NCBI GenBank assembly: GCA_016931915.1
Contig: JAFGDU010000098.1
Location: forward strand, 1,728 to 65,727
Reading direction: 5' to 3'
Length of the DNA: 64,000 nucleotides
Source of the DNA: Actinomycetota bacterium
Lineage (GTDB): Bacteria > Actinomycetota > Geothermincolia > Geothermincolales > RBG-13-55-18
This document shows positions 8,821 to 48,773 of the stretch, piece after piece. A program made the translations under genes and the position numbers. Positions within the stretch are counted from its first letter, which is position 1, and every line of letters starts with the position of its first letter. The notes beneath the pieces were generated by a model that had not been told where the DNA came from, did no database searches, and saw only the letters and a program-made list of their open reading frames with translations.

Positions 8821-8864
8821 TATAATGAATTGGCGGGTATCGGATCTTTTGGAGGTGATGCGTC

Positions 8865-22393: not shown

Positions 22394-22463
22394 GGGGTCG
22401 TATCTTTATTTTTGAATTCACAACCAGAAATTGTCAGGCTATTCAAGAATAAAGATGTGACCC
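22394..22463 (+). repeat. family A hairpin element, copy A1
   Basis: GGGGTCGTATCTTTATTTTTGAAT-tcacaaccagaaattgtcaggct-ATTCAAGAATAAAGATGTGACCC. Confidence 0.9.
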
Positions 22464-22721
22464 TGGAGCCGGACATTGGGTTTGGACAACTCGACCCGCC
22501 AGTTGGATGGTAAGATATTGGCATCAGGAGGTTCATATGAGGGATTTCGACTGATGTTTGTTGCAGGAAACGGAAATGGAAAATAGCAACTCACAGCTAG
22601 AAAACAATCTCTACGGGCAAAGTCCCGTAAATTGGTGCATCATACTCAGAATACTGATATCAGGTAGTGTATTTGGAAAACCCCTGGTTAATCAAGGCTC
22701 TTACAATACCAGGAGGTTGCC

Positions 22722-23516
22722 ATGATAAGTTACAAAGAGTTACGAACGGTTACACCACACGATCCATTCATGTCTGGAGATAACCTTTCCTATTTTGTGG
22801 TAGCTTATTTCCCCAAAGCGGATCTCATGAGGATCTTGCGGAGGGGGATGTCTATACCTTCTGAAGAGATCATGGCCAGGGAATTCCCGACTGCAAAGCA
22901 GAGGAAGGGTATGATCCCGTTCTTGACCCTGTACAGCAGGTGCAACAATGTCCGCGAGCATATCTTCGATGTCACCGTGCGTCCGTACCTGGAGATCAAT
23001 TTCTTTTTCCCGGTCATTTACACCTACAAGGGCGAGGAGCATCTGTGCTCGTTCATGCCACTGCTCTACCTCGATCGCCTTTTCCACACAGTTGGCGGAT
23101 GCCTGCTAGGCTTGCGCAAACAATTCCACCCCAACTTGAGATTCACGGAGACCGACACGTTGTGCTCTTTCCATCTCGAAAACATCCTCAGCGCGAGTTT
23201 TCCGGATGATTCGATGCAAGAGGTAGATGAAGTCGACCCGTTCATCACGCAGATATTCAGAAAGCCGACCCTGACCTATTCCTATTTCCACAAGACCGAC
23301 TTCTACACGACGCAAGTGTTTGATGCCAAGAAGGTGTACAGAGCTTCGGCTGACTTCGAATGGAACTGCAAGGGCACCGTGATCAAGAGCGACGAGCATA
23401 CCTTCTGCAACTTCGCCGAGTACAGCTTCACGGTTTCACGGGCCATGAGCTACAAGAAATACTTCTACCCGAAATACCCTGTAGATTGGGAGCAAATAAC
23501 GGAGATCCAGATCTGA
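22722..23516 (+). CDS. hypothetical protein on a low-GC insert; possible acetoacetate-decarboxylase-like fold
   Basis: 264 aa. AGGAGG 5 nt before the ATG. 41 G+C in the first 100 nt, versus 71/100 at 21961-22060. The pattern YLEINFFFPV..LLYLDRLFHTVGGCLLGLRKQF..ETDTLCSF resembles ADC-family blocks (from memory only). Confidence 0.6.
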   Translation: MISYKELRTVTPHDPFMSGDNLSYFVVAYFPKADLMRILRRGMSIPSEEIMAREFPTAKQRKGMIPFLTLYSRCNNVREHIFDVTVRPYLEINFFFPVIYTYKGEEHLCSFMPLLYLDRLFHTVGGCLLGLRKQFHPNLRFTETDTLCSFHLENILSASFPDDSMQEVDEVDPFITQIFRKPTLTYSYFHKTDFYTTQVFDAKKVYRASADFEWNCKGTVIKSDEHTFCNFAEYSFTVSRAMSYKKYFYPKYPVDWEQITEIQI

Positions 23517-23541: not shown

Positions 23542-23612
23542 GGGGTCATATCTTTATCTTTGAAATCACGACCAGAAATTGCCAGATAATTTAAAAATAA
23601 AGATGTGACCCC
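23542..23612 (+). repeat. family A hairpin element, copy A2
   Basis: GGGGTCATATCTTTATCTTTGAAA-tcacgaccagaaattgccagataa-TTTAAAAATAAAGATGTGACCCC. TA on both flanks. Confidence 0.9.
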
Positions 23613-27880: not shown

Positions 27881-28741
27881 ATGTTACCTGAAGTGTTAAC
27901 GCAGGATATCGGCGAAGTGGAGCTGCAGTACCTGCATTACCCCGGTGACGGGCCTGCCTTGGTATTGCTCCACGCCACCGGTTTCCTGCCCTGGCTCTGG
28001 CACCCCATTGCCAGGGAACTGGTTGGGGATTTCCGCGTCATCGCCCCCTATTTCTGCGACCACAGGGTCTTCGATCCCGAGGAAGGGGGCTTGAGCTGGC
28101 TTCTCCTGGCCAGCGACCTCACGACCTTTATCAGGCGCCTGGAAATCGACGAGCCCTATATCGTGGGACATTCCATGGGAGCCACCGTCGCCGCGATCGC
28201 CGAAGCACACATGGGCCCGCTGGCATCCCGCATGATGCTCATCGAGCCCATCCTCCTGCCCTCGGGTTTCTACGAGGCCGAGATAACGGTCGAACAGCAT
28301 CCGCTGGCCTCGAAATCCATCCGGCGCCGCAATGCCTGGAGCGACGAGGAGGAAGCCAGGGAGTACCTGGGCGAAAAAGACCTCTTCGCGAACTGGGACC
28401 GGGAGATGCTCGACCTGTATCTCCAGCACGGTATGAGCGAGGCAGACGGCGGCGCACTCACCCTGGCCTGCAGTCCCCGGCGGGAAGCGGCGCTCTTCAT
28501 GGGGGGCATGGAGATAGACCCCTGGCCGCTTCTGGAGAAGGTCGCCTGCCCCGTTCTCCTCGTGGAGGGCGAGAAAAGCGAGAACAGGCTGGTGATAGAC
28601 CTGAGCCGTGCGGCATCCATCATACCCAATGCGGACCTGGAGGTGGTTACGGACGCCCGGCACCTCGTGCCCATGGAGAAGCCCCGCGAGGTGCTCGCCC
28701 TCATACGAGAGTTTGGGGTCAGCCGTTCAATCGACACGTAG
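27881..28741 (+). CDS. alpha/beta hydrolase; last 8 codons and stop lie inside MITE B1
   Basis: HATGF oxyanion region and GHSMGA nucleophile elbow. ATG 27881, 1 nt after the upstream stop. The C-terminus GVSRSIDT* is encoded by the element TIR. Confidence 0.8.
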   Translation: MLPEVLTQDIGEVELQYLHYPGDGPALVLLHATGFLPWLWHPIARELVGDFRVIAPYFCDHRVFDPEEGGLSWLLLASDLTTFIRRLEIDEPYIVGHSMGATVAAIAEAHMGPLASRMMLIEPILLPSGFYEAEITVEQHPLASKSIRRRNAWSDEEEAREYLGEKDLFANWDREMLDLYLQHGMSEADGGALTLACSPRREAALFMGGMEIDPWPLLEKVACPVLLVEGEKSENRLVIDLSRAASIIPNADLEVVTDARHLVPMEKPREVLALIREFGVSRSIDT

Positions 28742-28888
28742 GGTCACGTGTCCATATGCTTTCCAGCCGACAATCCGGCAGTTCCCCATAATAATCAGCG
28801 GCTAAAATGTGGTGCTCCTTCGTCAGAATATATACTGGTAATAGTCCGTGTACGCCTGACCCTACGTGTCGATTGAACGGCTGACCCC
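28715..28888 (+). mobile_element. family B MITE-like element, copy B1 (174 bp)
   Basis: Perfect 32-nt TIRs GGGGTCAGCCGTTCAATCGACACGTAGGGTCA / TGACCCTACGTGTCGATTGAACGGCTGACCCC. No ORF inside. Confidence 0.9.
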
Positions 28889-31577: not shown

Positions 31578-31676
31578 GGCGGGATTAATTATAGCATCGC
31601 TGCAAGGCTTCCTGTGTCGAGGCGATACTCGCAATGTCTTGTTTTGGAGCCCGCACATGGGATATATAATGTCTTT

Positions 31677-31753
31677 GGGCCGTTAGCTCAGTTAGGTAGA
31701 GCACCGGACTTTTAATCCGGGTGTCCCGGGTTCGATTCCCGGACGGCTCACCA
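31677..31753 (+). tRNA. tRNA-Lys (TTT)
   Basis: GGGCCGTTAGCTCAGTTAGGTAGAGCACCGGACTTTTAATCCGGGTGTCCCGGGTTCGATTCCCGGACGGCTCACCA. Anticodon loop CUUUUAA. Confidence 0.9.
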
Positions 31754-31822
31754 TATGATAGAAGCAGGCCGGGAGGGGTATTTGCCCGGCCTGTTCGCTG
31801 AAGGGACACGCGGCTAAAAGGA

Positions 31823-32296
31823 GTGATGCAAGGCATGGAACAGGAAGCGATACAGGACGAATGGCCGGAAGCTTTCAGGACCTGCTGGGGCTGTGGGAGT
31901 AATAATGAGCATGGGCTGCGCATAAAGAGCTACTGGGATGGCGATGAGGCGGTATGCGAATGGCAGCCCGAGGACTACCATATCGCGTTTCCCGGCTACC
32001 TGAACGGCGGCATCATCGCGACTATCATCGACTGCCACAGCGTGAACACCGCCAACTCGGCCGCATACCGGGCGGAGGGAAGGGAGCCGGGAACGGAACC
32101 GTACCTCTTCTACGTCACCGGCTCCATGCACATCGATTACCTGCGGCCGACACCCCTGGGCAAGCCCGTGACCCTGCGGGCGAGGGTCATGGAGATGGGG
32201 GAACGCAAAGCGGTGGTCGCCTGCTCTCTCTTTTCCGACGGCCAGGAATGCGCGAGGGGCGAGACGGTCGCCGTGAGGCTCAACGCCTTCGGATAG
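31823..32296 (+). CDS. PaaI-family hotdog-fold thioesterase
   Basis: 157 aa. CWGCG..N..GL, GGIIATIIDCH and a C-terminal beta-sheet pattern typical of PaaI/YbgC-like proteins. Confidence 0.6.
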   Translation: MMQGMEQEAIQDEWPEAFRTCWGCGSNNEHGLRIKSYWDGDEAVCEWQPEDYHIAFPGYLNGGIIATIIDCHSVNTANSAAYRAEGREPGTEPYLFYVTGSMHIDYLRPTPLGKPVTLRARVMEMGERKAVVACSLFSDGQECARGETVAVRLNAFG

Positions 32297-32337
32297 GCAA
32301 AGGGTCGGGTCCAGGAGATGAACACGGAGGGGTTCCG

Positions 32338-33252
32338 GTGAGAAAAAGACCCAAAGATATCCTGTGGTATGTACTGGCCAGGATGTTCTCTCTCTGCCAG
32401 AAGATGGGTGTTAATATCACCCCGGTCCATTACGAATCGACTATTCCCGTGATCGGCGAACTACCCGAAAGCCTCTGGGATAGTAAATCGGAGATGGTCG
32501 GGGTCGATCTCAAAGAGGATAGACAGCTGGAGCTGCTGCGCGAATTTTCCAATAAGTTCAGGAACGAATATGAACGGTTCCCGGCGGAGGACTCCGGCCG
32601 TCCGGGAGAATATTATATGAACAACCGCTTTTTCGCTGGTTATGATGCAAAGACCCTGTACTGCTTCGTCCGGCATTTCAAACCAAAGAGGGTTATCGAA
32701 ATAGGGAGCGGGTACTCCACCCTGATCCTGGTGCAATCTCTGCTCAAGAACAGGGAAGAGAACCCGGATGATGACGGTGAACTGCTGATAATCGACCCAT
32801 ATCCTAGAGACTTCGTAAGAGAGTGCTCTACCGCTCTCAGGTCATCGTTGCGGGAAACGAGGGTCCAGGACATAAGCCTTTCCGAGTTCGATGCACTGGG
32901 AGCCGATGATATCCTCTTTATCGACTCCAGCCATGCCCTCTGCATCGGTAGCGACGTGCAGTACGAGATACTAGAGATATTTCCCAGGCTGAGACCTGGC
33001 GTCATAATCCAACTGCACGACATCTTTCTGCCCGGAGAGTATCCACGCAGTTGGGTAATGGACAGGGTGAGATTTCTGAACGAGCAGTATCTCCTCCAGG
33101 CCTTCCTCGCCTTCAACCGGCAGTTCGAGGTACTGCTTGCACCACGTTATATTTACTTTTCTCGTCCCGTGGACTTGTATCAAACCCTTGGAACAGAGCG
33201 CGAAAATTTCGCGCTACCTGTAAGCTTCTGGCTGCGCAGGATGCCTGACTGA
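32338..33252 (+). CDS. class I SAM-dependent methyltransferase (Methyltransf_24-like), lower-GC gene
   Basis: GTG 32338 after GGAGGGG (track ORF open from 31954). Motif I VIEIGSGYSTL, then DILFIDSSH. 50 G+C per 100 nt at 32401-32500. Confidence 0.6.
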   Translation: MRKRPKDILWYVLARMFSLCQKMGVNITPVHYESTIPVIGELPESLWDSKSEMVGVDLKEDRQLELLREFSNKFRNEYERFPAEDSGRPGEYYMNNRFFAGYDAKTLYCFVRHFKPKRVIEIGSGYSTLILVQSLLKNREENPDDDGELLIIDPYPRDFVRECSTALRSSLRETRVQDISLSEFDALGADDILFIDSSHALCIGSDVQYEILEIFPRLRPGVIIQLHDIFLPGEYPRSWVMDRVRFLNEQYLLQAFLAFNRQFEVLLAPRYIYFSRPVDLYQTLGTERENFALPVSFWLRRMPD

Positions 33253-33253
33253 T

Positions 33254-33324
33254 GGGGTCGAATCCCGGTAATCGAGTTTTCACCCATTATCTGGCAGATT
33301 TCTCGATTATCGAGACCCGACCCC
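33254..33324 (+). repeat. family A hairpin element, divergent copy A6
   Basis: GGGGTCGAATCCCGGTAATCGAG-ttttcacccattatctggcagatttc-TCGATTATCGAGACCCGACCCC. 71 bp, starting 2 nt after the methyltransferase stop. Confidence 0.7.
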
Positions 33325-33330
33325 ATTTAG

Positions 33331-33360
33331 TTGACAAAGAGGCACTATTGGATATTTAAT
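33331..33360 (+). promoter_or_regulatory. candidate promoter of the marR-like gene
   Basis: TTGACA (33331-33336), 18-nt spacer, TTTAAT (33355-33360). An ATTTA-atgtg-TAAAT palindrome overlaps the -10 region. Confidence 0.35.
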
Positions 33361-33414
33361 GTGTAAATAGTTTGTATATAAATAATATGGCTCCGAAATA
33401 ACAGGAGTACGGAC

Positions 33415-33909
33415 ATGGCGGGCGAGAGCGAAAAGCAGGCAAACGGTTTCGAGAAGATAGTGAATGCCGCCATGAGCATCGCGGAGACGTGGAACGAAAA
33501 GACCAACAACTGGCTGCGGGAGAAACACATCACCTTCGTGCAGTTCAAAGCGCTCCTGCTGCTGAGCGAGCAAGAGAAACAGACGCTGAGCCAGCTTAGC
33601 GACGGGCTGTCACGTACCCGCTGCACCATCACCGGGCTCGTGGACAGGCTCGAGGACAAAGGCCTGGTGAGAAGGAAACGCAGCCGCAAGGACAGGCGGC
33701 TGATATACGTATCCCTCACCGACAAGGGGAGGGAGCTGGCAGTGGAACTGAAGGAAAAGGTAGCCCCGGAGATATCGAAACTGGGAGAAATGATAATGGG
33801 CAAGCTCACGGACTCGGAGGCCGCGGCCTTGTATGGCGCTCTGAACAAGCTCAGCACCGGCATAGGTGAGGTCCAGATACGCAGCATAGCAATGGAGCAA
33901 GAGATCTGA
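33415..33909 (+). CDS. MarR family transcriptional regulator
   Basis: Winged-helix block FKALLLLSEQEKQTLSQLSDGLSRTRCTITGLVDRLEDKGLVRRKRSRKDRRLIYVSLTDKG. Confidence 0.85.
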   Translation: MAGESEKQANGFEKIVNAAMSIAETWNEKTNNWLREKHITFVQFKALLLLSEQEKQTLSQLSDGLSRTRCTITGLVDRLEDKGLVRRKRSRKDRRLIYVSLTDKGRELAVELKEKVAPEISKLGEMIMGKLTDSEAAALYGALNKLSTGIGEVQIRSIAMEQEI

Positions 33910-33912
33910 AGC

Positions 33913-35199
33913 ATGGGAATCGCAGACTTTAAACGCAGGACGAAAAACAGCAAGACGGAGGACAAGGGTTATACGCCGGACTCTAAAGCAGAAGTCCAAG
34001 GCAGCAGCGCCAGCGAACCGACGGCCGCGCCCCACATGTATCATCATGGGGATGTGGACGGGGATGCGAGGGAAAGCGTGGTGGTCCCGCAGCCGGACGG
34101 CAAATGTATAACCGAGATAGGCGCGCGGCTCCGCGATATCCCCTTCTCCCCGCAGCGGCCTTACCTGCTCAGCCTGGCCGACGCGTACCGGCCGGATCTT
34201 TCGAAGATAAACCTGGACAGGCGCGGCTCCAAGCCGGACGACGTCCATCCCTATCCCGAGGGATTCGAAAAGGTGGTCTTTCCCAGCCTGGACGGCACCC
34301 CCCTGGTGGGGGTCCTGGGGGTGCACCGGGACGGCAGAAAAAGGCCGGGGGTGGTTTTCGCCCACGGTCTCCTCGGCTCCAAGACCAAAAACTACATACT
34401 GGAGGCCGCCCTGGAGGCCTATTCTTCCTGGGATTACAACGTCTTCGCGCTGGACATGCGCAACTTCGGGGAGAGCCAGTGGCTCTCTAACTCTCCTACC
34501 ACTGGGGGCTGGAAGGAAGGCCAGGATATCCTCGGCGCCTGCCGCTTTCTGGGCGAAGTGGAGGAGGTGACCAGCGTAGCCGCCGTGGGGTTCAGCCTGG
34601 GCGCCGGCTCGGTGGTCAACGCCGCCTATCAATGCCGGCAACATCCGTACATCACCGGGGGAGCCATGGCCTGGAGCAGCTATGCCTCCATGGAAAAGAT
34701 GATGTCCCTCATGAGCAGCCGCCCCCCGCTGGGCGATCCATTCTTACCCATCTACATGGCTTTCTTATGTCTTACCGAGATACGCCGCCTGGAAATACGC
34801 CGTCAGATGAGCAAGGAAGCCGCCAGCGCCTACCTGGGCGACAAGCCATTCTCCCCGGATTACAGGCGGTACATACGGGAGATATCCGCCCCCCACTACG
34901 GCCTCGACGAGGAGACGATGTACGCCCTCTCCAGCCCGAAGGAATTCATATCCCAGGTGGACGTGCCGCTGATGCTGGTCCACGCCGAGGACGATCCCGT
35001 CTGCCGCGTCGAGGAGATGGAGGAGCTTCGCCGCTCCGCCGGAGGCAACCCCAACGTCGACATCTGGGTGCTGCCGACCGGCTATCACTGCGGTTTTAAG
35101 GGTTTCGACCAGGATTGGTACTGGTCCGTGATGCGCACCTTCCTCGACTACTGGGCGGACCGGACCGAGGAAGCCGATTCAGCCGCGATAGCATCCTAG
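33913..35199 (+). CDS. alpha/beta hydrolase
   Basis: 428 aa. FAHGLLG, nucleophile elbow GFSLGAG, late HAEDDP and GYHCGF. The stop TAG overlaps the first G of hairpin A3. Confidence 0.75.
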   Translation: MGIADFKRRTKNSKTEDKGYTPDSKAEVQGSSASEPTAAPHMYHHGDVDGDARESVVVPQPDGKCITEIGARLRDIPFSPQRPYLLSLADAYRPDLSKINLDRRGSKPDDVHPYPEGFEKVVFPSLDGTPLVGVLGVHRDGRKRPGVVFAHGLLGSKTKNYILEAALEAYSSWDYNVFALDMRNFGESQWLSNSPTTGGWKEGQDILGACRFLGEVEEVTSVAAVGFSLGAGSVVNAAYQCRQHPYITGGAMAWSSYASMEKMMSLMSSRPPLGDPFLPIYMAFLCLTEIRRLEIRRQMSKEAASAYLGDKPFSPDYRRYIREISAPHYGLDEETMYALSSPKEFISQVDVPLMLVHAEDDPVCRVEEMEELRRSAGGNPNVDIWVLPTGYHCGFKGFDQDWYWSVMRTFLDYWADRTEEADSAAIAS

Positions 35200-35269
35200 G
35201 GGTTACATCTTTATTTTTGAATTCGTAACCAGAAATTGGCAGGCTATTCAATAATAAATATGTGACCCT
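35199..35269 (+). repeat. family A hairpin element, copy A3 (degenerate arms)
   Basis: GGGGTTACATCTTTATTTTTGAAT-tcgtaaccagaaattggcaggct-ATTCAATAATAAATATGTGACCC. Confidence 0.85.
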
Positions 35270-35304
35270 CAAACCATTTCTCGATTTTAAGGACCTGACC
35301 CCTT

Positions 35305-35892
35305 ATGATGGACACGCGGGAGGTGATACAGGTGGTAATGGAGACCGCGAAGCCGGACATGTCCTGCTATCCCTTCAGGAGGAAGAAGCTCTACCTGGCC
35401 ATAGTCATACCTTATGTTACAGTTCTCGCCGCGGTCTTCTTCTATCTCCTGGCCAGGAAGAGCGCTCCAGGGGCAGGCAAGCGCTATTTCCCCGGCCTTA
35501 CATTCCTGTCCTTTTACCTGGGCATTTGCTATTTCCAGGCCTACTGCTGCGCCTGCCAGGAATGTCCCTACATAGGGGAGTTCTGCCCCGCCCTCGCGGG
35601 CATCTATCCGGCCAATACCCTGGCCAGAATGGAGTACGGAAAGAAAGGGGCAGTAAAACCAGAGGAAGCCTTCAAGGCCAACGCCACCGCGGCTGCCTTC
35701 TGCTGGGGCGGCATGGTGCTCTTTCCCCTCCCCTGGCTGGCACGGCGGAGCGCCAGGCTGGCCGCCGCATACGTGTTGTTGCACGCCGTCTATTACCTGG
35801 CACACGGGCTTATCCTCTGCCCGGTCTGCGCCATCCGTGATACCTGTCCCGGCGGCATGCTGCAATCGATGGTGCTGAAGCGGAAGGGGTAA
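35305..35892 (+). CDS. hypothetical cysteine-rich integral membrane protein
   Basis: 195 aa with about 4 hydrophobic helices. Cys motifs CYFQAYCCACQECPYIGEFCP and CPVCAIRDTCPGG. Confidence 0.55.
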   Translation: MMDTREVIQVVMETAKPDMSCYPFRRKKLYLAIVIPYVTVLAAVFFYLLARKSAPGAGKRYFPGLTFLSFYLGICYFQAYCCACQECPYIGEFCPALAGIYPANTLARMEYGKKGAVKPEEAFKANATAAAFCWGGMVLFPLPWLARRSARLAAAYVLLHAVYYLAHGLILCPVCAIRDTCPGGMLQSMVLKRKG

Positions 35893-35898
35893 GGGGCC

Positions 35899-36123
35899 TT
35901 GAAATGTAGAAAGTGCGGGGCATGCTGTATCGCCCTCTCCATATCGTCGCTGAACAAACCGGCGGGAGTGAGGTGCGAGCATCTCACGCAGGAAAACCTG
36001 TGCGCGCTGTGGGGCAAGCCGGAGAGGCCGGAGGTGTGCTCGGCGTACAAGCCCGACCCCCTCTTCTGCGGGAACAGCTTCGAAGAGGCGCTGGAACTCA
36101 TGCGCGCCATGGAGGAAGGATAG
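35899..36123 (+). CDS. small YkgJ-like cysteine-cluster protein
   Basis: TTG start 6 nt after the upstream stop. KCRKCGACC...CEHL...CALW...PEVCSAY pattern. 74 aa. Confidence 0.55.
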   Translation: MKCRKCGACCIALSISSLNKPAGVRCEHLTQENLCALWGKPERPEVCSAYKPDPLFCGNSFEEALELMRAMEEG

Positions 36124-36163
36124 AAAGCGGCGGCGGTATATACCGAACCGCAGAAAGGAGAAG

Positions 36164-37039
36164 GTGATGAGCGCAGGGCTGCGCGCGGAACTGACCCAGT
36201 CGCTGAGGATGATCGCCTATTCCACGCTGGCCTCTTCCAGATATTATCACTGGATGCTGCGCGAACGTCCCGAGCGCGCAAAGGGCCGTGTCGATATCGG
36301 AGACGCCCGCATCTTCTACCTCTCCTGCGGGCGGGGAGAACCGCTGCTGCTGCTGCACGGCGGTTTCGCCTACGCCGAGACGTGGGTGGGACAGACGCCG
36401 GAACTGGCCCAACGCTACCGGGTGATCGCCCCCGATTCCCGCGGCCACGGCCGCAGCACCCTGGGCACGAAGCCCATCACCTACCGGCAGATGGCGGAGG
36501 ACATGGCGGCGTTGGTGGAGAGGCTGGGCCTGGGCGGCGTCCACCTCATCGGGTGGAGCGACGGCGGCTGCACCAGCCTGGCCATGGCTTTGCAGCGGCC
36601 CGACCTCGTACGCAGCATGGTGCTGCTGGGCACGCCATTCAACACCGATAACTACAGCGCCGAGGGCTGGCGCCAGATGGAGAGCATCCTCGACCCGCGC
36701 TCTCTGTCCATGCTCAGCCTGAGATCCATGCGCCGCATGATGAACCCCGAACCGCACCGGGGCAAAGAGTTCCTGGAGGAGATGTCCCGGATGTGGAGGA
36801 CCCTGCCGGACTTCACTACAGAAGACCTTGGCCGCATCGAGGCTCCGACCCTGGTCATAGGCTGCGACCGCGACGAGTTCCTCTCCCTGTGGCCCGATCC
36901 TCTGCAGGTGTTCAAGGACACCACAGCGGCCATCCCGAACGCCCGGCTGGAGATCGTCAGGGGAGGTACGCACTTCGTAAGCCTGGAACGAGCTCGCGAG
37001 GTCAACCGGCTCATCCTCGACTTTCTCGCCTCCCTCTAG
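36164..37039 (+). CDS. alpha/beta hydrolase
   Basis: LLLLHGGF, nucleophile elbow GWSDGG, late GGTHF. The stop TAG overlaps the first G of hairpin A4. Confidence 0.8.
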   Translation: MMSAGLRAELTQSLRMIAYSTLASSRYYHWMLRERPERAKGRVDIGDARIFYLSCGRGEPLLLLHGGFAYAETWVGQTPELAQRYRVIAPDSRGHGRSTLGTKPITYRQMAEDMAALVERLGLGGVHLIGWSDGGCTSLAMALQRPDLVRSMVLLGTPFNTDNYSAEGWRQMESILDPRSLSMLSLRSMRRMMNPEPHRGKEFLEEMSRMWRTLPDFTTEDLGRIEAPTLVIGCDRDEFLSLWPDPLQVFKDTTAAIPNARLEIVRGGTHFVSLERAREVNRLILDFLASL

Positions 37040-37110
37040 GGGGTCACATCTTTATTCTTGAATAGTCTTCCATTTTCTGGTTGTGAATTCAAAAATAAAG
37101 ATGTGACCCC
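37039..37110 (-). repeat. family A hairpin element, copy A4 (reverse orientation)
   Basis: GGGGGTCACATCTTTATTCTTGAAT-agtcttccattttctggttgtga-ATTCAAAAATAAAGATGTGACCCC. TA on both flanks. Confidence 0.9.
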
Positions 37111-37177
37111 TAATTGGAACACAACACCGTACCCAGGGGTCGAAAGGATGGGGTTAATGAAATCATAAGGAAATACC

Positions 37178-37933
37178 ATGAAAAGGATCGTATTCAAAGC
37201 GTTGACGGTTTTCTTCATCCTGTTCTTCGTCGCCATCGCGATAATCGGATATCTGTTTTATACCGGACGCATGTGGTTCGTCGACCCCCCGCACGACAGG
37301 TTCCCGGTAAGGGGCATCGACGTCTCGGAACACCAGGGGAATATCGACTGGGAAAGGGTTGAGGCAGATGGATTCCATTTCGCCATCATCAAGGCGACGG
37401 AGGGAATGGACCACCGGGACAGCTGCTTCGCCCGCAACTGGGAGGGCGCAAGTAACGCGGGGCTGGCCAGGAGCGCATATCATTTCTTCACCTTTCGCAG
37501 CCCCGGGCTGGAACAGGCGAGGAACTTCATCGCAGTCGTGCCCAATGAACCTGGATGCCTGCCCCCCACCATCGACGTGGAGTTCGGCGGCAACAGCAGG
37601 GAGGTGCCCGACAGAGGGACCTTCACCAAGGAGCTCAAGGATTTCATCGGCGAGATAGAGGTGAACTACGGCACCAAGCCCATACTTTACGTGACCTACG
37701 ACTCCTACGAGGAGTTCATCGTCGGTGATTACGAGGATTGCATCATCTGGATAAGGGACCTCTTCGGATATCCACTACTGGAGGACGAGCGCTGGCTTTT
37801 CTGGCAGTACAACTGCCGCGGCAGGGTCGCGGGCATCGAAGGATACGTGGACCTGAACGTGTTCAACGGCGACCGTGCCGAGTTCGAGCGGCTGCCGCGG
37901 CAGACCGCGGACCAGCCTTCGTCACCCGAGTGA
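37178..37933 (+). CDS. glycoside hydrolase family 25 lysozyme (muramidase), membrane anchored
   Basis: N-terminal TM helix, then GIDVSEHQGNIDWERV...FAIIKATEG...AYHFF GH25 blocks. Confidence 0.8.
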   Translation: MKRIVFKALTVFFILFFVAIAIIGYLFYTGRMWFVDPPHDRFPVRGIDVSEHQGNIDWERVEADGFHFAIIKATEGMDHRDSCFARNWEGASNAGLARSAYHFFTFRSPGLEQARNFIAVVPNEPGCLPPTIDVEFGGNSREVPDRGTFTKELKDFIGEIEVNYGTKPILYVTYDSYEEFIVGDYEDCIIWIRDLFGYPLLEDERWLFWQYNCRGRVAGIEGYVDLNVFNGDRAEFERLPRQTADQPSSPE

Positions 37934-37981
37934 AATAGAATAGTAGCGTTGGTATCGGCGGGATATGGGAGGAGGCCTGAA

Positions 37982-38263
37982 ATGGCGGAATCGGAACCTC
38001 TCGGCTACCGCGTGGTCGGGACCATCAAGAGCGTGAAGGGCGAGTGCGGAGCCGGGCACAAGGAGGGGGATCAGCTGGAGATCAGCGGCTACAGCTCGGG
38101 AGGACTGTGCGGCTTCTTCTACCACGACATCTTCCCCTACCTCATGATGCTCCAGTTCGGCGGGGGCTTTCCCGAGGACTGGGGCGACCCAGAGGTGGTC
38201 GAGCTGGGCTGCGTGGACAAGACGAACATGGTAACCATAGAGCTGAGGCGCGTCAGGGAATAG
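37982..38263 (+). CDS. TIGR04076-family small protein
   Basis: ATG 37982 after GGAGGAGG. C..GH..GD...GGLCGFFYHDIFPYL...FGGGFP...LGCVD...V.IEL pattern as I recall for TIGR04076. Confidence 0.5.
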   Translation: MAESEPLGYRVVGTIKSVKGECGAGHKEGDQLEISGYSSGGLCGFFYHDIFPYLMMLQFGGGFPEDWGDPEVVELGCVDKTNMVTIELRRVRE

Positions 38264-38300
38264 CGGCCTTACTCGAGAAGGCCAGGGGAAGAAGCAGCGA

Positions 38301-38732
38301 TCAGATATCCCTGCCGAAGAGCTGGCAGATCCCCTCGAAACCGTGGTTTTCATAAAAGCGGTGGGCATCTGCACGGTGGAAGGCTGAATCAAGTTCCACC
38401 CTGCGGCAGCCGTCCTTCTTCGCCAGTTCAAGGGCCCGTTCCAGCAGCATACCTCCTATCCCCTCTCCCCTGCGGCTCTCATCGACTACCAGCTCATCTA
38501 CGTATCCCAGGAAGCCCTGCCCCCACAGGCTCTTCCTGACGCTGAGGGAGCAGAAGCCCACGAGCTTGCCCTCGCTCACGGCGCACAAGTAATGTTGGGA
38601 AGCCAGACCCAGGTTGTGGCGGAAGACCTCCTCCAACGCCTCGCGGCCCAGCTCACGACCCGGCCACAGCTGCCGCAGCAACCCGAGGACCGGCTCGAAA
38701 TCATCCTCTATGCACTGCCTGATCTCAACCAT
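38301..38732 (-). CDS. GNAT family N-acetyltransferase
   Basis: 143 aa. RRGEGIGGMLLERALELAKKDGCRRVELD acetyl-CoA-binding block. Confidence 0.85.
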   Translation of the reverse strand: MVEIRQCIEDDFEPVLGLLRQLWPGRELGREALEEVFRHNLGLASQHYLCAVSEGKLVGFCSLSVRKSLWGQGFLGYVDELVVDESRRGEGIGGMLLERALELAKKDGCRRVELDSAFHRADAHRFYENHGFEGICQLFGRDI

Positions 38733-38784
38733 GGTCCTCTTATGATTACGCGCGGCGCAGCACGGCGCAAGACCCGCCTGTCCT

Positions 38785-38855
38785 GGGGGTCACATCTTTA
38801 TTCTTGAATAGTCTGCCAATTTATGGTTGTTAATTCAAATATAAAGATGTGACCC
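38785..38855 (-). repeat. family A hairpin element, copy A5 (reverse orientation)
   Basis: GGGGGTCACATCTTTATTCTTGAAT-agtctgccaatttatggttgtta-ATTCAAATATAAAGATGTGACCC, in a divergent intergenic region. Confidence 0.9.
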
Positions 38856-38944
38856 TGAAATGACCACTGAAACTTGGGGCGCCACTATAAACATCCAGCC
38901 CCGATGTTTCGATAATCAATAACGTAACCGGCGACGAGAAGAAG

Positions 38945-39808
38945 GTGGTGATGATCGTGGCGGGAACGTTCGAGCGCAGCACGCAGATACTCAAGGAGAG
39001 TTTGGGGGTTCTCAAGCAAGACAAGGAGTTGGTGCTCTTCCCCATAATATCCGGGATCGTGATGCTGATACTTACCGCGTCCTTCGTCGTGCCCCTGGTC
39101 ATGTTTACCGGCATCAAGGACGGCGAGGTCGAGAACAACGTCCTCTACTATGTCTTCTTCTTCCTCTTCTACCTCGTCGGCTACTTCGTGGTCATCTTCT
39201 TCAACACCGGACTCATAGCCTGCGTGCAGATACGCCTCAGCGGGGGAGACCCCAAGTTCAGCGACGGCATGCAGTACGCCGTGGGCAACCTGGGCAAGAT
39301 AGCCGGGTGGGCGCTGATATCAGCCACCGTGGGCCTGGTGCTGCAGATGATACGGGAACGCGCCGGACTGCTGGGCAGGATAGCGGCGGGCCTGTTCGGG
39401 ATGGCATGGAACCTCATCACCTTCTTCGTTATCCCGGTCATGATCTTCCAGAACGCGGGGGTCATCGATTCCATAAAACAGTCGGCCGCGCTGTTCAAGA
39501 GAACCTGGGGCGAGAACGTGGTCCTGCGCTTCTCCCTCGGTCTTATCATGTTCCTGCTCGGGCTGCTGGGGATAATCCCCATCGCCCTCGCCATAATGAC
39601 GAAGTCTGCAGCGGTTATAATCGTTGTGGGCGCCGTTGTTGTGCTGTACTGGTTCGCGCTGGGGATCATCAGCTCCGCCCTCAATGGCATATTCGCGACC
39701 GCCCTGTATAACTATGCCATGACCGGAACCGTGCCGTCGGCCTTCAGCCCCGCAGTGATCTCGAGCGCCTTCGGGCAGAAGACCACCAGCGGCTTCTTCT
39801 CCCGCTGA
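38945..39808 (+). CDS. DUF6159-like integral membrane protein
   Basis: FERSTQILKESLGVLKQDKELVLFPIISGIVMLILTASF N-terminus and 6 hydrophobic helices. The stop TGA directly abuts MITE B2. Confidence 0.55.
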   Translation: MVMIVAGTFERSTQILKESLGVLKQDKELVLFPIISGIVMLILTASFVVPLVMFTGIKDGEVENNVLYYVFFFLFYLVGYFVVIFFNTGLIACVQIRLSGGDPKFSDGMQYAVGNLGKIAGWALISATVGLVLQMIRERAGLLGRIAAGLFGMAWNLITFFVIPVMIFQNAGVIDSIKQSAALFKRTWGENVVLRFSLGLIMFLLGLLGIIPIALAIMTKSAAVIIVVGAVVVLYWFALGIISSALNGIFATALYNYAMTGTVPSAFSPAVISSAFGQKTTSGFFSR

Positions 39809-39999
39809 GGGGGTCAGCCGTTCAATCGACACAAAGTGCCAGGCGTACACGGATTACTCAATTGCTTATGTAGCAAAGCAACCAGTTGCTACGCGAAATG
39901 CAGGAAATATGTGGGCTAGATCATAGGTGCTTCTTGTTGAGATTCAGGCTGCAAATATGTGGACACTTGACCCTATGTGTCGATTGAACGGCTGACCCC
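39809..39999 (-). mobile_element. family B MITE-like element, copy B2 (191 bp, inverted relative to B1/B3)
   Basis: Ends GGGGGTCAGCCGTTCAATCGACACAAAG... and ...TGACCCTATGTGTCGATTGAACGGCTGACCCC. The subterminal blocks are swapped relative to B1/B3. Confidence 0.9.
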
Positions 40000-41346: not shown

Positions 41347-42672
41347 TTATACCAGAGCTCCGCCTTTATAGACCGCCTTGATGCGCCCCATATTGGAAAT
41401 ATCCTCTAAGGGATCGCCTTCCACCACCACCATGTCGGCGTACTTCCCCGGCTCCAGCGTGCCGATGTCCTTCTCCAGGCCCAGTATCCTCGCGTTCACC
41501 GCGGTGGCACAGCGCAGGGCCTCGCAGGGGCTCAGCCCCACCTCGACCAGGTTCTCCAGCTCGCGGTGGAAATAACCGAAGAAGGCGAAGTCGGCGCCGC
41601 CGGAGTCGGTACCGCACCCCAGGATACCCCCCGCCCTCCATATCTTGTGCACGTTCTCGTAAGCGTTGGGGAGCAGTTCGCGCGGCATGGTCTCGTCCAT
41701 GACCCACTCCTTCTCTACCTCCCGCGCGCTGAAACCGTTGTGCATGTACTTGTGCAGGTGCTGCGAGACCAGCCTGTAGCATACCGGCTCCAGGAACTCC
41801 TTTCCCCGCTCCTCCAGGTCGCGGGATATGCGCTCGAACTCGAAGGTGTCCTTGTATACGTCAAGGGTGGCGATGAGCGCGGCTCCGGAGGCGACGAATC
41901 CCGCCACGTCCTCGTCTGAAAGCAGGCCGTCCATGGGGGTGTGATCGAAGGTCGCGGGGCCGTACTGCAAGCCCTTGCGGAAGGCGGAGAGCCACATCTG
42001 GTGGAATGCCACGGGCCTGCCCAGCCTCTCCGCCTCGGCGAAGAAGGCATCGTAACCCTCGTCCTCCCACGTGGGCAGAGCCCCCTTTCCCCTGCACAGG
42101 GAGAGGTCGCTGTGACAGGTCTTCACCCAGTCCGCGCCCAGGCCCACCATGCGCCGCACCAGGGCCGCGACGTCCTCGGGAGAATCGGCGCGGTCCACGG
42201 CCTGCCCCCCCGCGATGAGCCTGGCAGGCCCCTTCAGGTAGGGCACCCACTCGGGCGTGCCCCCGAAACAGGTTATATAGGAATTGGCGCAGACGATGCG
42301 CGGGCCGGGCAAACGCCCCTCCTCCACCGCCCGCCTGGCGCCCTGGATGCGGCGGGGGAAGGCCGCGACGTCCCTCACCGTCGTGACACCACTGTTCACC
42401 ACCGCCGCCAGGTTCCTCTTGACCTGCCTGCCCAGGGAGGCGATGACTCCCGGGGTGACCTTGGGCACGAAGGGCGTGATGAGGTGCACGTGTGCGTCTA
42501 TAAGCCCGGGGGTTACGCAGGCGCCACCGAGGTCGACCACCTGTTCCGCCGCGAGCCCATCGCGGTCCGCGGTTATCTCCGCGATCCTCTCCCCCTCCAC
42601 GCGCACGGCCATACCCTCCTGCGCTTCTTCCGTAACGCCGTCGATGAGCTTCAGATTCCTGAAAAGGACCAT
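41347..42672 (-). CDS. amidohydrolase family metallo-hydrolase
   Basis: GLIDAHVHL metal-binding motif, later GTDSG. ATG 42672 after GAGGAGAGGGG (the ORF is open to GTG 42693). Confidence 0.8.
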   Translation of the reverse strand: MVLFRNLKLIDGVTEEAQEGMAVRVEGERIAEITADRDGLAAEQVVDLGGACVTPGLIDAHVHLITPFVPKVTPGVIASLGRQVKRNLAAVVNSGVTTVRDVAAFPRRIQGARRAVEEGRLPGPRIVCANSYITCFGGTPEWVPYLKGPARLIAGGQAVDRADSPEDVAALVRRMVGLGADWVKTCHSDLSLCRGKGALPTWEDEGYDAFFAEAERLGRPVAFHQMWLSAFRKGLQYGPATFDHTPMDGLLSDEDVAGFVASGAALIATLDVYKDTFEFERISRDLEERGKEFLEPVCYRLVSQHLHKYMHNGFSAREVEKEWVMDETMPRELLPNAYENVHKIWRAGGILGCGTDSGGADFAFFGYFHRELENLVEVGLSPCEALRCATAVNARILGLEKDIGTLEPGKYADMVVVEGDPLEDISNMGRIKAVYKGGALV

Positions 42673-42800
42673 CTCTTCCACCCCTCTCCTCACCGTGACG
42701 GTCCAAGGCGGGAGCGCCCAACCCCTGCCCGGCGCGGGGCGGTCCCACTGCGAGCTGCGGGCTCATGTCCCGCAACGCCTTCTGTCATCGTTCTGCCAAG

Positions 42801-42983
42801 CTAGGAGGCCGCGATAGCCAGGACCCATATCCCGAAGATGCCCAGGGTCATGTGGAGGATTATCGCGCCGACGACCTCGTGCACCTTCGCTTTTCCCGCT
42901 GCAAACTGCGCGGTAACGGAGAGCATTCATATGGTCCCGCCGAAGAGAAGGAATATGGACAATATCAACCATCCGACGTTCAT
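42801..42983 (-). other. small two-helix membrane protein reading frame interrupted by one in-frame TGA (pseudogene, two mini-ORFs, or recoding)
   Basis: ATG 42983 overlaps the upstream stop (ATGA). 18 codons, then TGA (42929-42927), then ATG plus 40 codons, then TAG. The hydrophobic helix WLILSIFLLFGGTI-*-MLSV runs across the stop. Confidence 0.35.
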
Positions 42984-43216
42984 GATCCCTCCTCCCCCTC
43001 CGCGCCGACCGCAGCCGGTATCTCCCTGCCCTTATTGGCTATGCCGAAGAGTATCAAGGCCACCAGGGACACCACGCCGTGGACGAGATAGAAGGGCCAT
43101 ATCTCCCACGTGCCCTTGTCTCCCTGCCCCACCTCCACGATGCCCCAGACCATGAAGACCAGGGCCACGATCACCAGTATGGTGCCGATGAACAACAGCG
43201 TTCCCCTCACGCGCAT
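42980..43216 (-). CDS. small two-helix membrane protein
   Basis: ATG 43216 after GAAGGGGTG. MRVRGTLLFIGTILVIVALVFMVWG...FYLVHGVVSLVALILFGI. Track ORF open to 43306. Confidence 0.5.
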   Translation of the reverse strand: MRVRGTLLFIGTILVIVALVFMVWGIVEVGQGDKGTWEIWPFYLVHGVVSLVALILFGIANKGREIPAAVGAEGEEGS

Positions 43217-43317
43217 CACCCCTTCATAAGAGTCGATAATTCGCTCAGGCCCAAAGCCGGGCCTGGCCCCTGGGCTTAACGCCTCACGCGCATCACCCCT
43301 TAACAAAAGCCGGATAT

Positions 43318-44634
43318 CTACGGTTCCTTTCTACGCCGCTTTCGCACCGCCTTTTTCAGTTTCAGGCCATAGAGCCTGGATTGCACCAACGACCTGGGCT
43401 CGAAGCCGAAATAGTAGCGGTGCCAGTAGTATATGGAATCGAGCGCGTCCCTCATCTTGCGGTAGGCGCTGATACGCAGGGGGTAGCGGCGGCGCATCTC
43501 CTGCGCCTCCTCGAAGGTATCCACCCGCACCATGCGGCCGTCCGGCCCCGGCACCACGATGCCGGACTCTGCAAGGGCACGATACCTCTCCGCGGTCTCC
43601 TCCAGGGTGGGCCCGCACACCAGTGCGCACTGGCCGCAGATCATGGGGATAGGATAGGCGTCAATACCACCTACGCCCATCCTCCTGCCAAACTCGGCCA
43701 GGATGCGGTAACGCTCCGCCTCATCCTCCGGAAGGTCCTCGAGCCCGGGGACTCCCTCCATGATCTCCTGCGGCCAGAGTACGCTGCACAGAACGCGCAG
43801 AATATCGAAGCGGGGCCATGCGTCCCCCGCCGTCAGGCCGCGCTTGAACATATCCCAGATCAGCTTGAGCGGGTTCCCGCCGTCGGGCGGATTATCCACC
43901 CATGATTCGATCCAGTGCAGGCCCCAGTTGGAATAGCGCCTGTCCGCGCTCAGGCTGTGCAGGCCGAAACAGGAGATGTGGCAGAGGTCGATGTTGTTAC
44001 GGCGGCCGCGCGGATGCAGCTCGCCGCCCAGCAGCAGGTATTCCTCTTCCTTCGCGTCGAACATGCGGCTGGGACAGGATCTGGCGCAGCGCTTGCACTT
44101 CATGCAATAGCCATCCACGAAATAACGGGGCGTCAGCGCCGCATCGCTCTCCAGCACGGCGTCTGTGAGTACCGCCCCGAGGTAGATGGAGGCGCCGTAT
44201 TCCTTCGTCATCAGGTTGCCGCTCCACCCCTGCCCTCCCGCTCCCGCGGCCATGGCCCCCAGGCGCAGGGAGAATGCCGGGCGCGGCCGGAAGACATAAA
44301 TGGCGCGGCGGTAATCGGCGCTCAAGGGAACCCCTACGGCGCGGTGGCCCCGCGAGACGAGGAAGTCCGCCAACTCCTTTCCGATGCGCTGCAGGCGCTG
44401 GTAGTTGAGGAACTGGTCCAGGTTGTGGGGCGCGGGCGAGCGCTTGCACAGGAAATCGTAGATGGCATCGGTGTTCATGGGCAAGGCCATGGATACCACG
44501 GACCTCGCGCCAGGCATGGTGTAGGAGAGGTCGAGGGACGGAGGACCGTCCAGGCGCTCCGGTCCCGCGATCCCGACCACGTCTACACCGCGGGCTCGTA
44601 CGAAATCCTTGATCCTGTCCTCGATGGACGCCAT
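43318..44634 (-). CDS. Fe-S protein, epoxyqueuosine-reductase / reductive-dehalogenase-like
   Basis: ATG 44634 after GGGGAG. 4Fe-4S motif CMKCKRCARSCP and further Cys (CGQCALVCGP). N-terminal region resembles the QueG-type fold (memory only). Confidence 0.45.
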   Translation of the reverse strand: MASIEDRIKDFVRARGVDVVGIAGPERLDGPPSLDLSYTMPGARSVVSMALPMNTDAIYDFLCKRSPAPHNLDQFLNYQRLQRIGKELADFLVSRGHRAVGVPLSADYRRAIYVFRPRPAFSLRLGAMAAGAGGQGWSGNLMTKEYGASIYLGAVLTDAVLESDAALTPRYFVDGYCMKCKRCARSCPSRMFDAKEEEYLLLGGELHPRGRRNNIDLCHISCFGLHSLSADRRYSNWGLHWIESWVDNPPDGGNPLKLIWDMFKRGLTAGDAWPRFDILRVLCSVLWPQEIMEGVPGLEDLPEDEAERYRILAEFGRRMGVGGIDAYPIPMICGQCALVCGPTLEETAERYRALAESGIVVPGPDGRMVRVDTFEEAQEMRRRYPLRISAYRKMRDALDSIYYWHRYYFGFEPRSLVQSRLYGLKLKKAVRKRRRKEP

Positions 44635-44907
44635 GGAGGCTCCCCAAAAAACGAATAAGCCGGAAACGCCTACGGCAGCCAAGCAATGTATGCAGCAGCT
44701 TGCACCGTTTCTTAATTATACAGGTGCCGGGGTCACTCTAGAATTCCTCATCCCGGTCGGCGGCGAAACGGTATCGCCCAGGAGGGAGCGCAGCACCACC
44801 TCTTCCTCCGCTGCTCCTGGCGTAGAAAACGCCGCTCCCGCCACCGCGCTTATATGTCATAATGTTGCTGCAAAGGGGATTCTCAGGCGAGGTAAGGAGG
44901 CGGAAAG

Positions 44908-48599: not shown

Positions 48600-48773
48600 G
48601 GGGGTCAGCCGTTCAATCGACACATAGGGTCAAGTGTCCATATGCTTTCCAGCCGACAATCCGGCAGTTCACCACAACAATAGCGCAAAAGAGCTTGATG
48701 CTCTTTCGCCATATGTATTCTTGGAATAGTCCGTGTACGCCTGACCCTATGTGTCGATTGAACGGCTGACCCC
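48600..48773 (+). mobile_element. family B MITE-like element, copy B3 (174 bp)
   Basis: GGGGGTCAGCCGTTCAATCGACACATAGGGTCA ... TGACCCTATGTGTCGATTGAACGGCTGACCCC. Begins 4 nt after the thiolase stop and ends 2 nt before the trp -35 box. Confidence 0.9.

Follow-up and report, generated by a model that had tools for sequence, protein, structure and literature searches.

Dispersed hairpin repeats, probably of REPIN/MITE type, in a gene-content-variable chromosomal region of an uncultured Actinomycetota bacterium

Nine palindromic elements were found by a repeat search and a targeted scan in a stretch of 64,000 nucleotides (nt) from contig JAFGDU010000098.1 of an Actinomycetota bacterium (assembly GCA_016931915.1), referred to below as the window. 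All nine copies begin with GGGGTC or GGGGTT and end with GACCC(C/T), their interiors are free of open reading frames (ORFs), and they fall into three types, A, A6 and B. Type A is a near-perfect hairpin of 71 nt (GGGGTCACATCTTTATT...AATAAAGATGTGACCCC), represented by A1 (22394-22464), A2 (23542-23612), A3 (35199-35269), A4 (37040-37110) and A5 (38786-38856); the loops of A1 to A3 are oriented opposite to those of A4 and A5. Element A6 (33254-33324) is identical to type A in length, ends and apical CCA-N5-TGG and differs from it in the stem, each arm of which contains the small palindrome TCGATTATCGA. The right half of another A6-type hairpin (35276-35302) lies directly past A3 and is orthologous to a fuller copy at positions 9046-9116 of the related contig L066. 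Type B comprises B1 (28715-28888), B2 (39810-39999) and B3 (48601-48773), which measure 172-190 nt and in which 40-nt inverted ends (GGGGTCAGCCGTTCAATCGACAC...) enclose about 90 unpaired bases. Five of the elements lie between 33254 and 39999, where they had been placed by the initial annotation, made from the sequence alone, with module spacings of 1.87, 1.77, 1.67 and 0.95 kb; the gaps that we measured are 1875, 1771, 1676 and 954 nt. A1, A2, B1 and B3, which are located outside this interval, as well as the half copy past A3 and the distinctness of the A6 stem, were missed by that annotation.

A Pfam scan of the approximately 55 ORFs that cover the window showed metabolic, regulatory and transport genes. 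Upstream of A6, genes for a 4HBT thioesterase and a Methyltransf_24 protein (31835-33252, plus strand) adjoin a tRNA-Lys gene (31677-31753). Between the successive elements from A6 to B2 lie, in this order, genes for a MarR regulator and a 428-aa alpha/beta hydrolase (33415-35199, plus strand), for a Cys-rich membrane protein, a small CxxCxxCC-like protein and a 291-aa alpha/beta hydrolase (35305-37039, plus strand), for a GH25 lysozyme and a TIGR04076 protein on the plus strand together with a GNAT protein on the minus strand (37178-38732), and for a DUF6159 membrane protein (38945-39808, plus strand). The gene identities proposed initially hold for MarR, the three alpha/beta hydrolases, GH25, GNAT, DUF6159 and TIGR04076, and the CxxCxxCC match is weak.

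The repeats are far from what would be expected by chance, as the A pattern gave seven strand-matches in the window versus none in 100 shuffles, and the B end gave six versus none in shuffles. When folded as single-stranded DNA, every copy tested formed a strong hairpin, with energies of -12.7 to -21 kcal/mol and z-scores of -4.3 to -9.4. Across 20 copies of the A and A6 types and the type of locus L198, which was recovered from a metagenome, stem pairing is kept via two-sided changes; 79% of the cells are paired, and the covariation score of 0.259 exceeds that of shuffles (0.147) and of slid controls (0.08-0.11), the changes tracing to about three subfamilies and hence to few independent events. 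Each arm carries its own small palindrome, CTCGATTATCGAG in type A6, TATTCTTGAATA in type A and GTCAA-N10-TTGAC in the cross-phylum consensus, all of which are short and could partly be due to chance. We also observed that a second GGGTCA box often occurs about 12 nt outside the A-type end (in the left flanks of L011, L022, L026, L035, L047, L050 and L057) and, in the B ends of the window, about 27 nt inside the end; this spacing looks like that of repeated binding sites for a protein.

The two-arm A pattern was searched in the species representatives of GTDB, and the loci recovered were given L-numbers. The pattern was found at 63 loci labelled as Atribacterota, Thermodesulfobacteriota, Actinomycetota and several other phyla, with eight of the actinomycetotal loci in the single metagenome-assembled genome (MAG) GCA_964529285.1. 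The arms are near constant (GGGGTCAAATCTTTATTCTTGACA, 24 nt), the loop and the total length (61-79 nt) vary by lineage, and the palindrome extends one base past the GGGG/CCCC ends, as T...A. Of the 69 A copies found in other genomes, nearly all lie outside genes, and the gene contexts of the 46 copies that could be classified are tandem in 26 cases, convergent in 12 and divergent in 8. Direct repeats of 6-8 bp flank six of the 69 copies, among them AAGTTTTT at L005, (C)AGCTTT at L052 and TATTCTT at L060; the expectation is 0.85, and none of 2000 GC-matched shuffles reached six. As most copies come without a duplication, transposition may be due either to a DDE enzyme with a 7-8-bp duplication or to an HUH or RAYT-like (REP-associated tyrosine transposase, where REP stands for repetitive extragenic palindromic sequence) enzyme without one.

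Among the proteins encoded near the hairpins of the 63 loci, ABC transporter, permease and GGDEF proteins alone turn up repeatedly; otherwise no protein family recurs beside the copies, as expected of non-autonomous elements. No RAYT-like gene was detected in the window, none recurs across the 63 hairpin loci, and no parent insertion sequence with matching ends was found, solo arms being decayed or partly duplicated hairpins. The inverted ends of Tn3-family transposons also begin with GGGGTC; this family was ruled out for our elements, as there is neither a 5-bp duplication nor an inner TAAG. The elements had no match in plasmid and phage collections, and viral contigs contained one A match and no B match. 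A metagenome scan with the frame pattern GGGGTYR-N-CCANNNNCTGG-N-YRACCC gave one real hairpin, that of L198, among the 120 matches listed, the rest being chance. A tandem duplication that comprises a hairpin's right end and a few flanking bases was seen in three cases (L022, 6100-6143; L046, 5179-5226; L203, 5604-5683) and may be a trace of element insertion or repair. A literature query with the sequence returned unrelated primers only, and we found reports neither of MITEs (miniature inverted-repeat transposable elements) in Atribacteria nor of MITE-bounded cassettes; as far as the literature could be found, the repeat family appears to be undescribed, yet the kind of element is known.

All nine copies in the window are intergenic or overlap gene ends only, and in seven of them an end overlaps a stop codon or is at most 4 nt away from one. 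A6 begins 2 nt after the stop codon of the methyltransferase gene, leaving a gap of 1 nt, A3 overlaps the TAG of the 428-aa hydrolase gene by 1 nt, A4 begins directly past the TAG of the 291-aa hydrolase gene (0-nt gap), and B3 lies 4 nt past the stop codon of a thiolase gene. B2 contacts the stop codons of two convergent genes, coding for the DUF6159 protein and a 285-aa hydrolase (gap/overlap of 1/-1). The ends of B1 (28715-28741 and 28862-28888) even encode the last nine codons plus TAG of the convergent alpha/beta hydrolase and MFS genes flanking it, so that both proteins share the tail GVSRSIDT. A2 is located 25 nt past the stop codon of a gene for a 264-aa protein and 83 nt from a tRNA-Phe gene, and A5 and A1 are located in divergent promoter regions, between the GNAT and DUF6159 genes and upstream of the 264-aa gene, respectively. 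The earlier statement that the elements sit at gene ends is thus accurate for A6, A3, A4 and B2, which abut stop codons, but not for A5. The polarity of the hairpins with respect to the upstream gene is inconsistent, A3 being opposite to A4.

Such a location could also mean that the hairpins are structural signals selected by the host rather than mobile DNA, i.e. terminators of gene 3' ends without U-tract, stabilisers of mRNA, translation-stall sites or binding sites of a GGGGTCA-recognising protein. Translation stalling and other effects at 3' transcript ends have been reported for the REPs of Escherichia coli. Besides the proximity of seven of the nine window copies to stop codons, a host signal would account for the compensatory changes in the stem, the invariance of the ends and of the apical CCA..TGG, the binding-site-like second GGGTCA box in B ends and several A flanks, and the occupation of sites in several genomes despite sequence change. 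We nevertheless consider this explanation unlikely. A5 and A1, as well as eight of the 46 classified copies across phyla, are found in divergent regions and not at 3' ends, the stems lack a subsequent T-run, and none of the elements is called whole by the terminator scan. No family in Rfam matches, all hits being noise whether gathering thresholds or E <= 1 were applied. In addition, the contig L066 does without A5, and the near-identical 24-nt arms across phyla together with the duplications at six of 69 copies point to movement.

Seven related contigs, reached via homologues of two proteins, the 291-aa hydrolase and one with HEAT repeats, were compared to the window by BLAST maps. Their nucleotide identities to the window are about 91% for L203/L204, 87% for both L066 and L067/L068, 83% for L044 (the same as L072) and L073, 75% for L069/L070 and 75-85% for L071; L074, with a 67% hydrolase homologue, turned out not to be syntenic and was set aside. 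The maps revealed that the region is a mosaic in gene content. The 4HBT and methyltransferase genes and A6 are lacking beside tRNA-Lys in L044/L072, and so is the whole block from A4 through GH25, TIGR04076 and GNAT to A5, with no hairpin remaining. The MarR gene and the 428-aa hydrolase gene are present in L066 and L072 and absent from L071. In L066, a 5.7-kb block coding for a TIG-domain protein, a serpin and a sigma factor lies between A6-type hairpins exactly at the place of A3 in the window, and L066, L067 and L068 have two extra ABC-transporter genes left of GH25, the end of which coincides with the right edge of the A4 place. In L069 and L071, A4 and GH25 are missing and TIGR04076 and GNAT are retained; most of the DUF6159 gene is deleted from L071, with one breakpoint at the A5 site, and L069 lacks B2 and the 285-aa hydrolase gene and loses synteny at B3. 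Synteny of L203 with the window ends about 40 nt right of A2. Within the region, all relatives (L066-L072 and L203) keep one common order of the shared genes, and the only rearrangement is at the region edge, at B3 in L069.

The elements themselves turn over at orthologous sites. A5 is absent from L066, the closest relative in this comparison, with unchanged genes, and A3 is retained at the orthologous place in L044/L072 and L073. The place of A4 is taken by an A6-type hairpin in L066, L067 and L068, by a lone GGGGTCAGCC in L069 and by nothing in L071 and L072. In L203, a 294-nt B-like element that begins 4 nt past a stop codon takes the place of 7 nt in the window (27881-27887), without any duplication. 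The places of B1, B2 and B3 are filled in L072, and that of B2 also in L066 and L044, by differing GGGGTCAGCC... variants. Identities among the B copies of the window are 0.73-0.89, and those with the same-site element of L072 are 0.47-0.62, compared to about 85% identity of the flanks, which indicates that turnover or homogenisation of the elements is faster than divergence of the flanking genes; it is not instantaneous, as L203, at 91% identity, keeps the B type of the window at the B1 site.

Gene-content breakpoints were tallied between 23.6 and 48.8 kb of the window over 29 junctions, eight of which hold an element. Breakpoints fell at seven of the eight hairpin junctions versus nine of the 21 others (Fisher one-sided p = 0.038), a weak enrichment that comes from a hand count of 29 junctions at one locus. 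The initial annotation had asked whether modules appear, disappear or permute as units with breakpoints at the hairpins. The answer is partly positive: the seven occupied breakpoints agree with the coming and going of modules, but breaks also occur at nine hairpin-free junctions, and among the relatives no module was seen in another order or at a second location.

One way to read the occupied breakpoints is that the hairpins are recombination sites of an enzyme encoded elsewhere that inserts and excises gene modules. This would be a new cassette-like system, with functional counterparts in the attC sites of IntI or, on Acinetobacter plasmids, in the XerC/D-bounded dif modules. Apart from the seven of eight junctions, such a role would fit the disappearance of the block from A4 to A5 in L044/L072 with no hairpin left, the insertion in L066 between two A6-type hairpins exactly at the A3 place, and the extra genes of L066, L067 and L068 that stop where the A4 place has its right edge. 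In our view, it is very unlikely, as the 64 kb contain no recombinase, hairpin polarity is independent of gene direction, and modules are neither relocated nor reordered. Four of five lineages have TIGR04076 and GNAT, whose absence from L072 therefore looks like deletion. Moreover, gain or loss of GH25 involves only one breakpoint at a hairpin, the amidohydrolase gene (41347-42693) and a 0.58-kb segment of small ORFs (42704-43282) were gained or lost without any hairpin at their borders, and gene content at the B1 junction is unchanged in three genomes. Recombination of A4 with A5 was considered as the route by which L044 lost the GH25 block and was rejected, since this would leave one hairpin and none is there.

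A further proposal goes beyond sites for modules and sees the GGGGTC...GACCCC hairpins as substrates of an unlinked enzyme that copies, cuts and joins at hairpins, by which blocks would be deleted, inserted and swapped between related genomes. We give it little probability; if true, it would amount to a chromosomal, cross-phylum and integrase-free system of module exchange. It is likewise improbable that the coincidence is purely passive, in the sense that hairpins and indels both gather in weakly constrained intergenic DNA, such as tRNA neighbourhoods and recent low-GC DNA, and neither is causal for the other. The nine breakpoints at hairpin-free junctions speak for it, as do the two variable spots that adjoin tRNA genes and the GC content of the segment at 22-24 kb, which is 51% compared to about 61% elsewhere in the window. 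However, this explanation leaves open why different element types occur at exactly the same base past a stop codon, and it is a weaker form of the explanation that we prefer, i.e. mobile repeats in a variable region, rather than a true alternative.

The size and location of the hairpins are reminiscent of the attC sites of integrons and of CALINs (clusters of attC sites lacking integron integrases), which are also imperfect hairpins of similar size at gene 3' ends that separate small accessory genes. Our elements differ from these in that they have no R and L core sites, neither GTTRRRY nor RYYYAAC being present within 15 nt of any of the nine, in that their stems are near-perfect and the orientations of sites and genes mixed, in that no integrase is encoded in the window, and in that the modules are neither reordered nor found elsewhere. 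The objections to an integron that the initial annotation had raised itself, namely mixed element and gene orientation and the lack of core sites and of an integrase, were all upheld. A1 and A2 with the 264-aa gene between them were also examined as a mobile cassette. This candidate was dismissed, as the homologues of the gene (L075-L081) reside in unrelated contexts without hairpins and the short contigs that carry them do not end in hairpins. With no recombinase in the window, no attC cores, inconsistent polarity, unchanged gene order and hairpin-free homologues, an integron-like reading is not tenable, and the suggested new kind of hairpin-delimited cassette system is unsupported. We conclude that the elements are not recombination sites that define cassettes.

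In many respects the elements resemble REPINs, which are REP doublets that form hairpins and in which each REP unit is an imperfect palindrome (PMC3337134). The likeness extends to the extragenic location of hairpins of about 70-110 nt, the two inverted arms with an imperfect palindrome in each, the many copies per genome (here nine in 64 kb), the conserved arms and variable spacer, the genome-specific variants, the general lack of target duplications and the lack of coding capacity. Differences are that no RAYT gene was found in the window or at the 63 hairpin loci and that six of 69 copies have 6-8-bp direct repeats. Furthermore, the conserved head is GGGGTC and not GT(A/G)G, which Nunvar et al. 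reportedly described in 2010 as the head of REPs. A preprint describes REPIN-RAYT systems as vertically inherited (bioRxiv 10.1101/2022.05.22.493013); the A arm departs from a lineage-specific, vertical family in being common to MAGs labelled as several phyla, although some of these labels may be binning errors. In Pseudomonas, it is the stable regions that carry REPs, and DNA acquired recently lacks them (PMC3390384), so that the clusters that we found in a variable region deviate from the textbook picture of REPs.

The second type of element with clear parallels are the Correia elements of Neisseria, small intergenic MITEs with long terminal inverted repeats, some of which have target duplications (PMC3898611). 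Our elements share with them a length of about 60-190 nt, with 62-79 nt for A and A6, long terminal inverted repeats, an intergenic position that often adjoins genes and can alter gene ends, and presence or absence between close relatives; the 6-8-bp direct repeats at a subset of copies may be target-site duplications as well. In contrast to Correia elements, there is no TA duplication, duplications are found at only about 9% of the copies, we did not find a parent insertion sequence with these ends, and type A is palindromic over its whole length and not at the ends alone. With regard to the mosaic, the closest functional parallel, by analogy, is provided by the neisserial dRS3/RS repeat arrays and 'minimal mobile elements', which are intergenic repeats where strains differ in whole-gene blocks (PMC3898611). 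The exchange is thought to be based on recombination without a linked mobility gene, and a phage integrase has been proposed to act on dRS3 (PMC3898611). Varying gene blocks between conserved flanks match the situation in the window; on the other hand, the repeat sequences are unrelated, the phylum is a different one, no integrase counterpart is known here, and natural transformation is not established for this lineage.

Taken together, what we observe is a dispersed, extragenic and hairpin-forming superfamily of repeats whose copies differ in presence between relatives and whose variants are genome-specific, with flanking duplications at a minority of copies and a modest excess of breakpoints at occupied junctions. 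These repeats are probably REPIN/MITE-like and non-autonomous and have colonised a chromosomal region of variable gene content. The fallback of the initial annotation, a MITE-like repeat with a preference for gene boundaries, is accordingly the better fit. A superfamily with the shared ends GGGGTC(A/G)...(C/T)GACCCC would colonise a variable stretch of the chromosome, its copies being moved in trans by an enzyme that may be encoded elsewhere in the genome and may recognise either the GGGGTC(A/G) ends or the hairpin. Copies would lodge in the short gap of a few bases that separates a stop codon from the gene that follows, and quick replacement or homogenisation would result in each genome having its own variants. 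Neighbouring copies could then serve as substrates for recombination and perhaps promote gene indels, of which the coincidence alone, a modest one, is shown; many similar copies close together in a region that tolerates change would coincide with indels of neighbouring genes and may help to cause them.

Several results weigh against this explanation. No integrase, transposase, HUH enzyme or other recombinase was found among the approximately 55 ORFs of the window by the Pfam scan, and no mobilising gene recurs beside the hairpins of the 63 loci. Direct repeats are absent from the other 63 of the 69 A copies, from the window copies and from the B-type pair of filled and empty sites. The presence of the A arm in several phyla departs from the REPIN pattern, and of the cross-phylum labels some belong to short contigs that may be wrongly binned. 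As to a causal link with the indels, the weakness of the hand-counted enrichment, the single hairpin breakpoint of GH25, the hairpin-free borders of the amidohydrolase gene and the small-ORF segment, and the constant gene content at B1 are to be set against it.

For the cassette idea, the main outcome is negative, in that there is no new cassette system. As REPIN/MITE-type elements of uncultured anaerobic lineages (Actinomycetota, Atribacterota and Thermodesulfobacteriota), the family would be of interest because its members rewrite gene 3' ends, as in the case of B1, and mark differences in gene content between close relatives. Several of the related contigs end at or near a copy, and if short-read assemblies break there, MAGs would be fragmented. 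The conservation of the arms across phyla combined with genome-specific variants at the same site would make the family a good test case for the spread and homogenisation of repeats.

A number of further observations concern genes and sites near the elements. The 264-aa protein encoded between A1 and A2 (22722-23516) has no Pfam or NCBIfam match and at least 58 homologues in anoxic metagenomes; the bases just 5' of its gene start (CTCTTACAAT...AGGAGGTTG) are similar in the distant homologues L075 and L081. The amidohydrolase gene corresponds to an insert of 1.5 kb at 41.3-42.8 kb, which was considered as a candidate insertion sequence and rejected, this gene also being present in L072. It is common to the window and the more distant L072 and absent from the closer L066 and from L069/L071, and the adjacent small-ORF segment shows the opposite presence pattern. 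Both patterns disagree with the sequence identities, which suggests recombination between lineages. A 454-aa protein encoded on the minus strand (43318-44682) has weak, below-threshold similarity to QueG and reductive dehalogenases; its gene is kept in L066, L071 and L072 and absent from L069. Next to it, a 31-nt sequence (family D18) occurs twice, 77 nt apart, at 43205-43312, and the alignments of L066, L071 and L072 all break there. In L069, the thiolase gene is followed at the place of B3 by an array (8860-9050) of at least six GGGGTCAGCGTCTTGC units, which closes with GCAAGACCTGAC in inverted orientation, and past this array lies a homologue of window positions 1987-3399, which are about 45 kb away in the window. 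Finally, the contents of the tRNA-Lys spot (window 31660-31835; L072 4331-4511; L203 8463-10322) differ in three relatives. The window has the 4HBT and methyltransferase genes and A6 there, and L072 has about 180 nt of unrelated DNA. In L203, two UbiE-type methyltransferase genes are inserted upstream of the tRNA gene and are flanked by two copies of a 21-nt stretch that consists of the tRNA promoter and the first bases of the tRNA.

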